The notes below the pieces were generated by a model that saw only the letters and a program-made list of their open reading frames with translations, ran no database searches and was not told the DNA's origin. Below are positions 4,546 to 33,345 of a stretch of 64,000 nucleotides of DNA, piece after piece (the stretch's first letter is position 1; each line of letters starts with the position of its first letter). A program made the position numbers and the translations under genes. Source of the stretch: an uncultured Pseudomonadales bacterium (lineage in GTDB: Bacteria; Patescibacteriota; Microgenomatia; UBA1400; MFAQ01); the NCBI GenBank assembly GCA_964429015.1, contig CAYSAM010000003.1, forward strand, positions 6,378 to 70,377. Reading direction: 5' to 3'.

Positions 4546-4622
4546 GTCATTCCCGACTCGATCGGGAATCCATCCCCATTTCGTCATTGCGAGGCTCGAC
4601 TTTAGGTCGACCGTGGCAATCC
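4546..4622. repeat. GTCAT-hairpin composite repeat element (family 1)
   Basis: GTC-ATTCCCGA-CTCGA-TCGGGAAT-CC (8-bp stem) followed by CGTCATTGCGAGGCTCGACTTTAGGTCGACCGTGGCAATCC. Related copies lie at 12100, 13056(rc), 27408, 32313, 34517, 43257 and 53706. Confidence 0.75.
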
Positions 4623-27407: not shown

Positions 27408-27503
27408 GTCATGCCGGTCTTGATGAGTTTGTCCCGAGTACCCCCTCGGGAGCATCCAGTCCACGTCATTGCGATGCACGACTTTAGGTCGGCCGCGGCA
27501 ATC
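27408..27503. repeat. GTCAT-hairpin composite repeat element (family 1)
   Basis: GTCATGCCGGTCTTGATGAG...TCCCGAG-TACCCC-CTCGGGAG...CGTCATTGCGATGCACGACTTTAGGTCGGCCGCGGCAATCT. Confidence 0.75.
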
Positions 27504-27859: not shown

Positions 27860-27884
27860 AAATATTGATACTCATCCTATATTG

Positions 27885-27955
27885 TCGGGGTACTCGGAAT
27901 TGAACCGAGATCATGCGCACCCCATGCGCACATACTGCCGTTATACTATACCCCG
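27885..27955 (-). tRNA. tRNA-Pro (anticodon GGG)
   Basis: Minus-strand read CGGGGTA-TA-GTAT-AACGGCA-GTAT-G-TGCGC-ATGGGGT-GCGCA-TGAT-CTCGG-TTCAATT-CCGAG-TACCCCG-A: 7-bp acceptor, TTCAATT T-loop, U33, G37. CCA is not encoded. Confidence 0.8.
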
Positions 27956-29738: not shown

Positions 29739-31325
29739 ATGTCACTTTTATCTATTTTTAAGTCTGGAATTTTCAAAAAATCAAAAGATTCTGTTGCAAA
29801 TGTTGAAACTGTAAAGTCATCTCCTGTTGTAATTAAGTCAGAGGTCGCCTCTATCGCACCAAAAACGTCTACGATCAACGATCTACAAACTACAAACTCT
29901 GTCGACACCACCGCAATCATTGCCCAAGCTACCGCTACGGCTCATGCTCAAGCCAGAGAAATTATTATTTCCGCCAAAGATGAAGCCTTCAAAGTCAAAG
30001 ATCAAGCTATAAAAGATGCTAGGTTGCAGCTCGAAGATATCGAAGTAAAAGTAAAGTCGCTAAACCAAAAACAGCAAGCTTTAGTCCAAGAAGAAAATAA
30101 TCTTAAAAAAGACAGACAGCAACTAGAGGTAACCCAAAAGCAAATCGAAGAAATAAAAGCCAAACTTCAAGACCATGCTGATCAAATGGTCAAAAAACTA
30201 GAAAAAGTTGCATCCCTAACCACCGAACAAGCCAAAAAAGAACTTCTCGCTCAAGTTGAAAAACGCTCTTCCATGGAGATTGCCAGAGCAATCAAAGAAA
30301 CAGAAGAAGTCGCCAGAGCCCAAGCCCAAGATAAGGCCAGAGAAATTCTCGTCGACTCTATGAGGTCAGGGGCTACTGATTATGTTGCAGAGTACACAAT
30401 TTCTACAGTCCCAATTCCAGACGAAGAAACCAAAGGTAGAATAATTGGTAAAGATGGTAGAAACATTAGAATCTTCGAAAAAGTTTCTGGTTGCGACGTA
30501 TCCATGGATGATTCACCAGACGAAGTAAAACTCAGTAGTTTTGATCCGGTCAGAAGAGAAATTGCCCGCCAAACCTTAATTCATTTAATTAAAGATGGTC
30601 GTATTCATCCTGCTCGTATCGAAGAATACTTCGAAAGATCAAAGAGAGATGTTGAGCAGATCATGTTTCAAGAAGGACAAAAGCTTTGTCACGCTGTTGG
30701 CGTCTACAATATGCACCGTGACATTGTTGCCATGTTAGGACGATTCAAGTTCCGCACCTCATACGGCCAAAACATGATCAGTCACACACTGGAGGAAACC
30801 AGAATCGGTATCAAAATTGCTAGTGAAATTGGCGCCAATGTCGACATTGTTCGTATGGGCTGCTTGCTTCACGATATAGGTAAAATTATCGAAGGTGAAG
30901 GTAATCACATCGAACTAGGTGTTAATTATCTTAAAAAATACAATCTTCCCCAGCCCATCATTGACTGTGTAGCTCAACACCACGAAGATGAAGAATTTAG
31001 TTCTATAGAATCAGTCTTGGTTTATATTTCTGATGCTATCTCTGGTTCTCGCCCCGGTGCTCGCCACGAAAATACCGAAGACTATGCTAAGAGAATAAAA
31101 CAACTAGAAGAAGTAGCTCGCAAACACCCAGAAGTCGAAGATGCTTACGCCATTTCCGCTGGTCGCGAAATTAGAGTCATCGTCAATCCTCACAAGGCAG
31201 GCGATGCTCAGCTAGTCATCTTGGCTCAAGCCATAAGAGACGAAATCAGAGACACTATGACCTTCCCTGGCACCGTCAAAGTAAACGTCATTCGCGAAAC
31301 CCGCGCCTCCGAAATCGCCAGTTAA
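29739..31325 (+). CDS. rny: ribonuclease Y (KH plus HD domains)
   Basis: KH: IIGKDGRNIRIFEKVSGCDV. HD: ...ISHTLEETRIGIKIASEIGANVDIVRMGCLLHDIGK. C-terminus ...VNVIRETRASEIAS, like B. subtilis ...VIRETRAVEYAK. Confidence 0.9.
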   Translation: MSLLSIFKSGIFKKSKDSVANVETVKSSPVVIKSEVASIAPKTSTINDLQTTNSVDTTAIIAQATATAHAQAREIIISAKDEAFKVKDQAIKDARLQLEDIEVKVKSLNQKQQALVQEENNLKKDRQQLEVTQKQIEEIKAKLQDHADQMVKKLEKVASLTTEQAKKELLAQVEKRSSMEIARAIKETEEVARAQAQDKAREILVDSMRSGATDYVAEYTISTVPIPDEETKGRIIGKDGRNIRIFEKVSGCDVSMDDSPDEVKLSSFDPVRREIARQTLIHLIKDGRIHPARIEEYFERSKRDVEQIMFQEGQKLCHAVGVYNMHRDIVAMLGRFKFRTSYGQNMISHTLEETRIGIKIASEIGANVDIVRMGCLLHDIGKIIEGEGNHIELGVNYLKKYNLPQPIIDCVAQHHEDEEFSSIESVLVYISDAISGSRPGARHENTEDYAKRIKQLEEVARKHPEVEDAYAISAGREIRVIVNPHKAGDAQLVILAQAIRDEIRDTMTFPGTVKVNVIRETRASEIAS

Positions 31326-31340
31326 TATTTAACTAAAAAA

Positions 31341-32279
31341 ATGACTATAATCACCGGTTGTGAAGGTCCAGATCTAGATGGTGTTGCCTGCATGATTGCC
31401 TATTCTGAGTTGTTAAATGCAAAGGGTATTCAGTCCAAGGCCAAATACTTTGGCAAACTCGATTTGGAAACCAATTTTGTCACCAAGTTCACTAATTATT
31501 TTCCGTTAGACGAAGGATCGTATCTACATGACGCCGACTATGTTCTAGTCGATACTGCAAATCCAGACATAATTGATAAAAATATACCAATCGATCGGGT
31601 AATTTCAGTTTTCGATCATCGTCAACTTGTATTTACCAATAAATTCACCAATGCAGAATTACATATCGAACTGGTTGGTTCCTGCGCCACCTTAATTACC
31701 GAAGAGTTCCAAAAGGCAAAAGTAACCCCAAGCATTAACTCGGCGACTTACCTGTATTCTGCAATTGTTTTTAGTACTATAAACTTCAAAAATACGGTCA
31801 CAACAGATAGAGATATCAAAGCAGCCGAATGGCTACTGTCTATTGCAAATACAAGCGAAAGCTTTGTTCGCGATTTATTTTCAGCAAAATCTCAAATATC
31901 TCCATCCAATCTTTATGAAATATTGTCACAGGATTTTTCCATAAAAACTCTATCAGATCACAAAATCGGTATTGCTCAAATTGAAATGGTCAACATCAAT
32001 CGTTTCTTGTCCGACCTCAAACAACCTCTTAAAGAGGCACTCTCCAAACTAAAAACAGACAACAACTTGGAATATATCTTTTTCAATGGTATTGATGTCA
32101 TTGACGGCTACAGTCTGTTCATAGTTATCGATTCGGCTTCGGCAGACATCTTCTCTTCGATACTCGGAATTTCCAGGTTCGAATACTCACATCAACATCC
32201 CTCCATCATCATGCGCAAACAAATCTGGCCAAAAGTTGAAGAACATCTAAAAACCCGCGCCTCCGAAATCGCCTCATAA
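31341..32279 (+). CDS. DHH-family phosphoesterase-like protein (degenerate, NrnA-like N-terminal domain) whose last 8 codons duplicate the rny 3' end
   Basis: MTIITGCEGPDLDGVACMIAY...LVDTANPD...VISVFDHRQ (DHH motifs); C-terminus ...KTRASEIAS identical to the rny tail. Confidence 0.55.
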   Translation: MTIITGCEGPDLDGVACMIAYSELLNAKGIQSKAKYFGKLDLETNFVTKFTNYFPLDEGSYLHDADYVLVDTANPDIIDKNIPIDRVISVFDHRQLVFTNKFTNAELHIELVGSCATLITEEFQKAKVTPSINSATYLYSAIVFSTINFKNTVTTDRDIKAAEWLLSIANTSESFVRDLFSAKSQISPSNLYEILSQDFSIKTLSDHKIGIAQIEMVNINRFLSDLKQPLKEALSKLKTDNNLEYIFFNGIDVIDGYSLFIVIDSASADIFSSILGISRFEYSHQHPSIIMRKQIWPKVEEHLKTRASEIAS

Positions 32280-32291
32280 AAATGCATTGTT

Positions 32292-32350
32292 GGGGCGAGG
32301 TTCCTCTCGCCCCCGTCATTGCGAGTCACGGCTTCAGGTCGGCCACGGTG
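32292..32350. repeat. perfect 8-bp hairpin GGGGCGAG-GTTCCT-CTCGCCCC followed by a family-1 GTCATTGCGAG element
   Basis: ggggcgaggttcctctcgcccccgtcattgcgagtcacggcttcaggtcggccacggtg. Confidence 0.7.
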
Positions 32351-32487
32351 CTTCTCAGTAGGTTTCTGCCTTTAGCCCCTGACCTAGATCCGTGGTAAAT
32401 GTCGAAATTAGTTTTTGTCGAAGACAAAATAACTTTCGACCAATCTATACAAACTACACTAAGTGAAAATAGTACTTAGTCAAAAAT

Positions 32488-32967
32488 TTATTTTACTAGC
32501 GCTAGTAAGGCATTTATATCCAGTTGTTTAGAATCCATCTCAATCATGCCATCTGCATTTTTCACCCAAGTTTCTTCTGGTGTATCGCAGTACAGTTCAA
32601 TACCAATGTTATCTGGGTCACGCAAATATATCGCCTCAGATACTCCATGGTTACTCGCTCCTTCAATCGGATATTTATTAACTACTAAACTTTTTAATAC
32701 TTTGGCAAGTTCCAGTCTGCTTGGCAGTAAAATCGCAAAGTGATAAAGTCCTGCAAACCCCTGTGGTTGTGGTGGTATTCCCTCACCTTGCCACACATTC
32801 AAACCGATATGATGGTGATAACCACCAGCAGATAAAAATACTGCCGACTTTCCATATTTATTTGTCACTTCAAAGCCCAAAATATCTCTATAAAACTGAA
32901 GTGACTTTTCCAGGTTAGAAACAGTTAGGTGGACATGACCTATTTTTGTTTTCGGACTTATTATCAT
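32488..32967 (-). CDS. VOC-family (glyoxalase/bleomycin-resistance/extradiol dioxygenase fold) protein
   Basis: ...IGHVHLTVSNLEKSLQFYRDILGFEV...; 159 aa. Confidence 0.8.
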   Translation of the reverse strand: MIISPKTKIGHVHLTVSNLEKSLQFYRDILGFEVTNKYGKSAVFLSAGGYHHHIGLNVWQGEGIPPQPQGFAGLYHFAILLPSRLELAKVLKSLVVNKYPIEGASNHGVSEAIYLRDPDNIGIELYCDTPEETWVKNADGMIEMDSKQLDINALLALVK

Positions 32968-33069: not shown

Positions 33070-33345
33070 ATGACAAAACAAACCCTTATCGGAATTGTTT
33101 CCAAAAAAGTTCACCTCACCAAAAAAGCTGTCAAAGAAACAGTCGATGTTTTTTTCGATGAATCTATAAAAGCACTTACCAAAGGTGAAAAGGTTGTAGT
33201 GTCTGGCTTTGGTACCTTTTATGTCAGCAAGGTAAACGATAAGCAAGTTGTTCCTTTTGGCAACGAATCCAAACGTCAAGTAGTCAAAGGTCACAAAGTC
33301 GTCAACTTCCACGTTGGCAAACCTCTCAAGAAAAAAGTTTCTTAA
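33070..33345 (+). CDS. hup: HU-family DNA-binding protein
   Basis: ...KGEKVVVSGFGTFYVSK...; 91 aa. Confidence 0.88.
   Translation: MTKQTLIGIVSKKVHLTKKAVKETVDVFFDESIKALTKGEKVVVSGFGTFYVSKVNDKQVVPFGNESKRQVVKGHKVVNFHVGKPLKKKVS

Follow-up and report, generated by a model that had tools for sequence, protein, structure and literature searches.

A second RNase Y gene end closes a DHH/DHHA2 gene in Candidatus Collierbacteria: a probable scar of old recombination

Introduction

How does the end of one gene come to stand a second time at the end of its neighbor? The locus that raises this question lies in a 64,000-nucleotide stretch of forward-strand DNA, here called the window (GenBank assembly GCA_964429015.1, contig CAYSAM010000003.1, positions 6,378 to 70,377), and the genomes closest to it are those of Candidatus Collierbacteria (Microgenomates group, Candidate Phyla Radiation, CPR). 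The last codons of rny, the gene for RNase Y, are repeated there at the end of the following gene, which encodes a protein with DHH and DHHA2 domains and is referred to as the DHH gene; its repeated end is called the tail. An interpretation from the letters alone (the sequence-only reading) had taken this arrangement for an insertion that regenerated the C-terminus of the host gene, through a long target duplication, a site-specific cassette, or recombination between the copies. After comparison with related loci we consider it probable (about 0.7) that an old recombination event left the two 23-bp copies at the ends of its product, as an illegitimate or homology-facilitated scar that now allows deletion and probably re-insertion of the gene between them.

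The direct repeat and the RNase Y gene

The 23-mer AAACCCGCGCCTCCGAAATCGCC occurs in two exact copies on the same strand (Table 1), and both proteins carry the same tail, precisely as the sequence-only reading had described. The copies are spaced 954 bp from start to start and enclose exactly one gene, again in agreement with that description. In both open reading frames (ORFs) the 23-mer is followed by a Ser codon and TAA. The Ser codons, AGT on the left and TCA on the right, differ at all three positions, so that nucleotide identity ends exactly at the end of the 23-mer, and the C-terminus shared by the encoded proteins is TRASEIAS. As translated, the left copy completes RNase Y and the right copy is shown to supply the last 8–9 codons and the stop of the DHH gene.

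No third copy was found within the window on either strand with up to three mismatches allowed, and 100 shuffles gave a chance expectation of 0 matches. The 23-mer itself has no notable fold and was absent from the 2.9 million viral contigs searched. A common genomic repeat such as a terminator consensus, or RNase Y homologues that end otherwise, had been named as the findings that would undo the sequence-only reading. The former was rejected, as the 64 kb contain just two copies and the viral contigs none; as to the latter, the ending IRETRA[AS]EIAS before the stop is common to about 30 Collierbacteria loci, and more distant Microgenomates end their RNase Y in variants of IRExRxxxxAx. A chance match or an assembly artefact was also rejected as the explanation of the repeat. 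Nothing beyond the metagenomic source of the assembly suggests it, and its probability is practically negligible in view of the zero matches expected by chance and of the same architecture in eight independent assemblies (NCBI, ENA, JGI, Logan).

Table 1 Features of the rny–DHH locus and of its counterparts in relatives. Positions without a locus name are those of the window.
Feature	Position or loci	Strand	Basis or remark
rny (RNase Y), full length, 528 aa, ending ...VIRETRASEIAS and stop	29739..31325	+	TIGR03319, Pfam
Left 23-bp copy	31297..31319	+	Last residues of rny; then AGT TAA
Spacer, 15 nt, AT-rich	31326..31340	+	From rny stop to DHH start
DHH+DHHA2 phosphoesterase gene, 312 aa, ending ...EEHLKTRASEIAS and stop	31341..32279	+	Pfam, PDB, NCBIfam, AlphaFold2
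Right 23-bp copy	32251..32273	+	Displaced rny 3' end; in-frame C-terminus of the DHH protein
Ser codon and stop of the displaced tail, TCA TAA	32274..32279	+	Type that ends rny in DHH-less members of the clade
GC-rich structured spacer	32292..32395	+	Outside the 23-bp repeat; one REP-like copy (GTCATTGCGAG at 32315)
Glyoxalase/VOC-family gene	32488..32967	-	Pfam PF00903, E 1.2e-15; variable islet occupant
hup (HU-like DNA-binding protein)	33070..33345	+	Conserved right-hand neighbor
DHH next to rny, with tail	Window, L003, L045, L046/L110, L047, L131/132, L133/134, L139		
DHH next to rny, without tail	P0001/L135, P0007/L049, P0060, P0009/L019 (+ L052-54), P0010/L048		
Small islet genes	L045 2187-2441, L046 1113-1349, L047 2942-3494, L136 3260-3532, L137 5176-6447, L133 1176-1625		

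RNase Y is solidly identified. The protein scores 508.8 bits with TIGR03319, above the equivalog cutoff of 454.35, and its residues 48–527 lie on model positions 25–513 of 514, so that the C-terminus is covered; the Pfam domains RNase_Y_N, KH_1 and HD are all present. An RNase Y search listed at least 8000 matches, and Collierbacteria rny–hup loci number in the hundreds. In 12 of 12 DHH-bearing lineages examined, rny closes with AGT TAA or AGT TAG, after which come an AT-rich spacer and the start of DHH. Promoter-like matches around the rny–DHH spacer are no commoner than in shuffles and none is convincing, so that the DHH gene is likely to be co-transcribed with rny.

The DHH/DHHA2 protein and its added end

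The sequence-only reading had regarded the DHHA1/GGGH region of the DHH protein as absent or degenerate, which proved to be a misassigned domain type. The C-terminal domain is a complete DHHA2 (PF02833, profile positions 2–125 of 126, residues 178–301, E 5.5e-13, 49.8 bits, cutoff 27), and an NrnA-type nanoRNase (DHH-DHHA1 with GGGH) was rejected, as there is no DHHA1 match. The N-terminal DHH domain is covered over profile positions 3–125 of 125 and scores just under the cutoff (24.7 bits against 28.1, E 3e-5). The protein thus has the domain composition of the DHH-DHHA2 superfamily, a DHH domain followed by a complete DHHA2 domain. It aligns with the solved family II pyrophosphatases 1K23 and 2IW4 (E ~5e-21), and its AlphaFold2 model has a predicted local distance difference test (pLDDT) value of 93.6. 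NF003877 (PpaC) matches residues 2–304 with 138.5 bits, below its equivalog cutoff of 283. By these profile and structure matches the gene is not a truncated NrnA; it is complete and homologous, though divergent, to the family II pyrophosphatases.

The homology to family II pyrophosphatases ends at about codon 303–304 (nt ~32250), and the DHH gene has no stop codon of its own. An alignment with NrnA homologues had been proposed as the way to locate the end of homology; the family that matches is instead that of the pyrophosphatases, and the match stops at residue 304. On this ground the last 8 residues are read as a foreign add-on from the displaced rny tail. In the AlphaFold2 model they prolong the C-terminal helix away from the core, with falling confidence.

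B. subtilis H9, D13, D15, D75, H97, H98 and D149 are presumably the metal-binding and catalytic residues of family II pyrophosphatases. Four of them (D13, D15, D75 and H97) are kept in the DHH protein as D11, D13, D71 and H93, together with the RK motif of DHHA2, and the other three are replaced (H9 by C7, H98 by R94, D149 by S145), so the full set is not present. The same three replacements extend across the whole Microgenomates DHH/DHHA2 family, which judging from these residues is probably a phosphoesterase with a substrate different from that of the pyrophosphatases. Database sources label this family “manganese-dependent inorganic pyrophosphatase”. Compared with B. subtilis PpaC (PDB 1K23), a family II Mn-dependent pyrophosphatase, the DHH protein is similar in two-domain architecture and length, but it lies far below the equivalog cutoff, has the three canonical residues replaced and carries the 8-residue RNase Y-derived tail. 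Nothing relevant was found in the literature on a link between RNase Y and DHHA2.

Distribution and age of the junction

DHH homologues are common in Microgenomates, and they adjoin rny only in one Collierbacteria subclade. Only homologues at least 65% identical to that of the window are found next to rny, and all those at 56% or less are located elsewhere. A metagenome scan with the DHH alignment returned mostly distant, unlinked homologues; its only additions were L052-54, of one species with L019, and L110, of one species with L046.

The tail is present in eight Collierbacteria lineages (Table 1), whose DHH proteins are approximately 70–81% identical to that of the window. Exactly three codons separate “YL” from the terminal “A[AS]EIAS” in every one of them (AFEIAS in L139). 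In the tail-less lineages DHH ends a few residues past “YL”, and the downstream DNA is different in each. A neighbor-joining (NJ) tree of DHH proteins places the tail-less P0010 (L048) at the base and the tail-bearers in one group, with tail-less forms nested inside. The identical register of the junction in all tail-bearing lineages speaks for one origin of the junction, with the tail lost secondarily in some descendants. Because the junction is common to eight lineages and the DHH proteins of the seven intact ones are 20–31% apart pairwise, it is, on this comparison, old and not a recent insertion. The proposed insertion that regenerated the C-terminus of the host gene therefore stands in its geometry, the segment being present or absent as a unit in relatives, and fails in its recency.

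Some loci show local irregularities. In L139 (ENA NODE_83, 1.7x coverage, 4600–5545) DHH is split by frameshifts, the invariant MRK is changed to ICK and the tail reads ADRAFEIAS; these defects mark either a pseudogene or low-coverage sequencing error. An additional ORF of 179 aa lies there on the minus strand before the glyoxalase gene. In L053 (Ga0075782_121, 2480–2510) rny residue ~498 is joined to DHH residue 9, with the rny end, the spacer and the DHH start missing, and in its sister contig (L054) the DHH match is 48 nt shorter. Both are population deletion variants or misassemblies.

Empty sites and loss of the DHH segment

A search of relatives for rny followed directly by the downstream flank had been proposed as a check, and it was successful. 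In L002/L136 (compared with L045) and in L137 (compared with L003), rny is followed directly by the DNA that otherwise stands after the right copy. A three-way alignment showed that L002 tracks the left flank of L045 up to GCGCCTC and thereafter the right copy of L045; further downstream the two are collinear with 92% identity over 62 nt and 96.8% over 475 nt. The rny end of L137 (AAACCCGTGCCTCCGAAATCGCCTCATAA) equals the right copy of L003 in 29 of 29 nt. The small genes downstream in tail-bearing genomes have homologues behind rny in DHH-less ones (L047 with L136 and L137; L133 with L137 and L001).

The Ser codon shows the same pattern. In the clade of the window, rny ends in AGT TAA/TAG if DHH follows (12 lineages) and, if it is absent, in TCA TAA (L001, L137/138) or TCG TAG (L002, L136). 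The right copy has TCA/TCG in the window, L003 and L045, TCC in L133, and AGC or AGT in L046, L047, L131 and L139. For the window, the deletion junction formed in silico is ...GAAACCCGCGCCTCCGAAATCGCC joined to TCATAAAAATGC, and the corresponding circle junction is ...CATCTAAAAACCCGCGCCTCCGAAATCGCC joined to AGTTAATATTTAAC...ATGACT.

An NJ tree built from the final 750 nt of rny, without the tail, places the window in a clade whose basal members L135 and L048 carry DHH. DHH-less and tail-bearing genomes are interleaved in it: L137 (none) with L003 (tail); L136 and L002 (none) with L045 (tail); and L047 (tail) with L049 (no tail) and L001 (none). Under parsimony the simplest reading would be that recombination between the copies deleted the segment precisely at least three times independently, possibly with re-insertions, and loss of the DHH segment appears more parsimonious than gain. 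Among the mechanisms first offered, recombination between the copies best explains the empty sites. Tandem duplication followed by deletion was rejected, since the DNA past the right copy corresponds to the post-rny DNA of DHH-less relatives and not to the spacer or the DHH start.

The minimal efficient processing segment for RecA is 25–35 bp, and about 26 bp permits strand exchange (PMC6382021). A repeat of 23–29 bp would be at the lower limit for RecA-dependent exchange, which fits rare but recurrent deletion.

Recombination and conversion at the locus

Exchange between lineages has left sharper traces elsewhere. L019 (5492–5900) and L046 (1–420) are ~100% identical over ~360 nt, from the rny end across the spacer and through the first third of DHH. 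Past this block the identity drops to 55–65%, with a sharp breakpoint inside the DHH gene, and L019 belongs to a different rny clade and has the hup promoter of that clade. The DHH of L135 is the closest to that of the window (86%) but its rny is basal; both L135 and L019 are placed differently by the DHH tree and the rny tree. L139 has the RNase Y of the window over the C-terminal 314 residues and a DHH allele only 70–80% identical; although it is the closest rny relative, its right copy (GCAGATCGAGCCTTCGAAATAGCAAGC) is very different. By these conflicts, recombination at the rny–DHH locus is frequent. Ongoing concerted evolution between the two copies was first hinted at by L003, in which both copies have CGT, and by L047, whose copies are identical over 20 nt including the rare ATA GCT; it was rejected as unsupported overall.

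Mobile-element readings

If DHH had been inserted at a staggered cut made by a transposase- or casposase-like enzyme, the two copies would be a target-site duplication, as direct repeats around a single gene suggest. However, no terminal inverted repeats were found at the insert ends and no transposase ORF was found, the right end of the insert lies inside an ORF, and the Ser codons differ at 3/3 positions right after a perfect 23-mer. A length of 23–29 bp also far exceeds the usual duplications of such enzymes. This origin is highly improbable, and the long target duplication of the sequence-only reading falls with it: the Ser codons differ, AGT going with the DHH block and TCA/TCG with the DNA downstream, which points to two source rny alleles and not to a duplication in situ.

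A decayed site-specific element would have a similar geometry. Integrative islands and cis-mobilizable elements (CIMEs) in the 3' ends of tRNA genes or of protein genes (fda, rpsI, rpmG) are known to leave direct repeats, to restore the end of the gene and to displace the original end (PMC7563491). In this alternative, an integrase-bearing island whose attP carried a copy of the rny 3' end entered that end, all but the DHH cargo was later deleted, and the 23-bp copies are attL and attR. The present locus resembles those islands in its direct repeats of a few tens of bp, the restored 3' end of the target, the displaced original end and the precise empty sites. The flanking direct repeats with a restored 3' end that define a CIME are thus found here, but the empty sites are not decisive, because homologous recombination explains them equally.

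The differences concern the machinery and the cargo. No integrase, transposase or IntI was found at the site between rny and hup in the genomes examined, where the small ORFs were not all scanned individually against Pfam. The rny–hup gap could be measured in ~35 Collierbacteria loci and reaches ~1.75 kb at most, which leaves no room for an integrase-carrying element; it is occupied by DHH, a glyoxalase/VOC gene and small ORFs. Between tail copies no other cargo was found in a scan of all loci, with one extra match in L013. The single ~0.95-kb cargo gene ends exactly at the junction without its own stop and is fused in frame to the displaced end, which is unusual for cargo bounded by att sites. 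Furthermore, the copies apparently derive from two rny alleles, as the Ser codons right after the identity indicate, movement seems to proceed by general homologous recombination, and the 23-mer does not occur in the viral contigs. A decayed element is accordingly improbable in our estimate.

The site-specific cassette of the sequence-only reading fared no better, with neither integrase nor attC in the measurable loci. In particular, the 3' end of the repeat-bounded segment has no attC-like palindrome, and no IntI/attI platform of an integron is found among the neighbors; the GC-rich hairpins lie outside the repeats. The extra match in L013 (8479–8499, 19/21 nt) was rejected as a tail copy: it encodes the RLIRAIEIAS motif of MiaA, and the resemblance comes by chance from similar residues and codon usage. 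Inferences from repeats in this genome call for care on that account.

Proposed origin of the junction

Homology-facilitated illegitimate recombination has been described in natural transformation (de Vries & Wackernagel 2002; Prudhomme et al. 2002, as summarised in PMC6382021). According to that summary, one long homologous arm, which here would be rny or hup/miaB, is combined with a very short match opposite, and recipient sequence is duplicated or deleted. Two allele types (AGT left, TCA right) and conserved arms in rny and hup are present at the locus. Unlike the cases in the summary, the event here is one that we infer from comparative data, and the junction microhomology (AAA) is uninformative.

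The founding block would have consisted of an rny 3' end of the AGT type, a spacer of 12–20 nt and a DHH/DHHA2 gene cut within a few codons of its natural stop, and may have been joined to codon ~520 of a TCA-type rny allele in an ancestor of Collierbacteria. The DNA of two lineages would probably have recombined by an illegitimate or homology-facilitated route, anchored on one side by long homology in rny or hup/miaB and joined on the other at short or no homology. The 23/23 identity in the window would be either an ancestral junction retained or local conversion from its own rny; it is no mark of a fresh insertion.

Once in place, the direct repeats would let ordinary homologous recombination remove DHH precisely, without a dedicated recombinase. 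The product would be an intact rny with the TCA/TCG codon and downstream DNA of the right copy, as fits at least three lineages. Relatives can probably put DHH back, to judge from the mosaicism and the tree conflicts, and the same exchange may shuffle the small genes between the tail and hup. The behavior resembles that of variable islets in which short repeats flank a dispensable gene, deletion leaves one hybrid repeat and different small genes are held per strain between core genes, here rny and hup. Unlike in the usual direct-repeat islets, the repeat lies within the coding end of an essential gene that deletion restores, and the second copy is translated in another protein.

Several points weigh against this origin. 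Its polarity could be either of two: entry of the DHH block into the rny tail, or arrival of an rny-tail fragment, together with the genes downstream of it, behind DHH. At the founding junction the microhomology amounts to a trivial AAA, so that the homology-facilitated route is itself deduced from comparison. The choice of loss over gain is carried by NJ trees that were built from short alignments and have no support values. At 23 bp, the repeat offers little length for RecA-dependent deletion to be efficient. Conversion from the own rny is not generally supported, as the right copy differs from it at a mean of 3.3 positions and from the copies of other genomes at 4.0, L047 being the only clear case (0/18 differences). 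Finally, the codon comparison given below indicates that the last six tail codons are under coding-type constraint, which a purely neutral scar would not predict.

Constraint on the tail

Pairwise comparison of the seven intact tail-bearing lineages showed that 20–31% of the residues differ in the DHH body and that 37–59% of the codons for conserved residues have synonymous differences. The three junction codons are nearly saturated, as 1–3 of 3 differ in all pairs except the closest (window and L003, 0/3). In the last six tail codons, residue differences between intact lineages are 0–1 of 6 (A/S only), and synonymous differences are found in 0–5 of the 5–6 codons for conserved residues, which is about the rate of the body. 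This constraint could arise if the right copy repeatedly became the true rny end after deletion and re-insertion, or was replaced through exchange of the downstream cassette; it could also arise if the peptide were useful to the DHH protein.

In the latter case the RNase Y C-terminal peptide RA[AS]EIAS would have been copied onto the DHH/DHHA2 enzyme and kept by selection because both enzymes would then share a signal for docking, localisation or turnover, such as one that brings them to the machinery of RNA degradation. The recombination proposed above would still be the origin, and the copy would now be functional. Conserved amino acids with synonymous change as in the gene body, next to free junction codons, are in line with this alternative. 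In the AlphaFold2 model of RNase Y, residues 522–528 lie beyond the last strand (514–519) with pLDDT below 50, and R522, A523 and A527 are invariant in 50 homologues; low confidence combined with invariant residues is the profile of a short linear motif. The tail also projects from the core in the DHH model, and L139 with its degenerate-looking DHH has a non-synonymous change (S to F) in the tail, although that contig has 1.7x coverage and its defects may be sequencing errors. On the other hand, the tail is dispensable, because the five tail-less lineages of Table 1 keep an intact DHH, and a right copy that cycles as a real rny end, or is overwritten from rny tails, should show this codon pattern as well. 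We regard selection for a shared signal as unlikely. Doubtful, too, is the more specific proposal that the flexible, conserved RA[AS]EIAS is a portable interaction or localisation signal that recombination moved to DHH/DHHA2, coupling it to the RNase Y machinery under purifying selection on the six codons.

Other features of the rny–hup region

The usual gene order in most Collierbacteria is recA-recX-rny-hup-miaB-miaA, and in the window the neighbors of the DHH segment are recA, recX, rny, the glyoxalase gene (glx), hup, miaB and miaA. In most genomes hup starts 65–102 nt past the rny stop, behind a conserved promoter-like TTGCA..TGGTAACATCAGCTAAATTA. Other gaps measure 150–165 nt (with an element resembling repetitive extragenic palindromes, REP-like), 450–950 nt (one small gene) and 1.0–1.75 kb (DHH-bearing). 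The glyoxalase gene also stands after DHH in L048, L047 and L139.

The GC-rich spacer of the window forms two strong hairpins (-50.8 kcal/mol, z -3.3) in an AT-rich genome, and no Rfam family matched in the region that includes it. It is partly conserved in L003 and absent from L048, than which the window is ~182 nt longer at this place; this comparison makes it probable that the spacer was inserted later, between the tail and the glyoxalase gene.

The REP-like palindromic element is ~40 nt long (GTCATTGCGAG..CGAC..GTCG..GGCAATCC). Its copies in the window are at 4583, 12100, 27465, 32315 and 34518, all on the plus strand, and its 11-mer has 5 occurrences within one mismatch against 0.63 expected. 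Most copies directly follow stop codons, and those of L005/L008/L012/L016 are just past the rny stop; further copies are at L013 8513–8545 and L137 5076. In the window the 5' end of the miaA ORF (34499.., MSLSTSRHCESQSAEAIHKQ) contains one copy, and in L013 one is in frame in the middle of miaA (..TTPVIASEARQSIKT..). The sole tRNA gene of the window, tRNA-Pro(GGG) at 27884–27955 on the minus strand, is located ~170 nt upstream of recA, with the copy at 27465 nearby.

With or without DHH, the islet in the clade of the window is occupied by shuffled small unannotated genes of ~78–155 aa in at least three families. One family ends in ..F[DE][IV]P[ED]..IP..Y.., and none has a Pfam match on record.

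Conclusions

In annotation, the DHH protein should be named neither pyrophosphatase nor NrnA, and its last 8 residues should be regarded as foreign. If the tail is functional, the RNase Y C-terminal peptide would be a transferable signal, and an uncharacterised DHH/DHHA2 family would be linked to RNA decay. In Collierbacteria the rny–hup gap forms a small hot spot where genes turn over. The locus would be an instructive but fairly ordinary case of genome evolution, a variant of known phenomena, in which a single gene is gained and lost as a unit in a CPR bacterium with a reduced genome and without mobile-element machinery, and the duplicated end of an essential gene may serve as the recombination handle.

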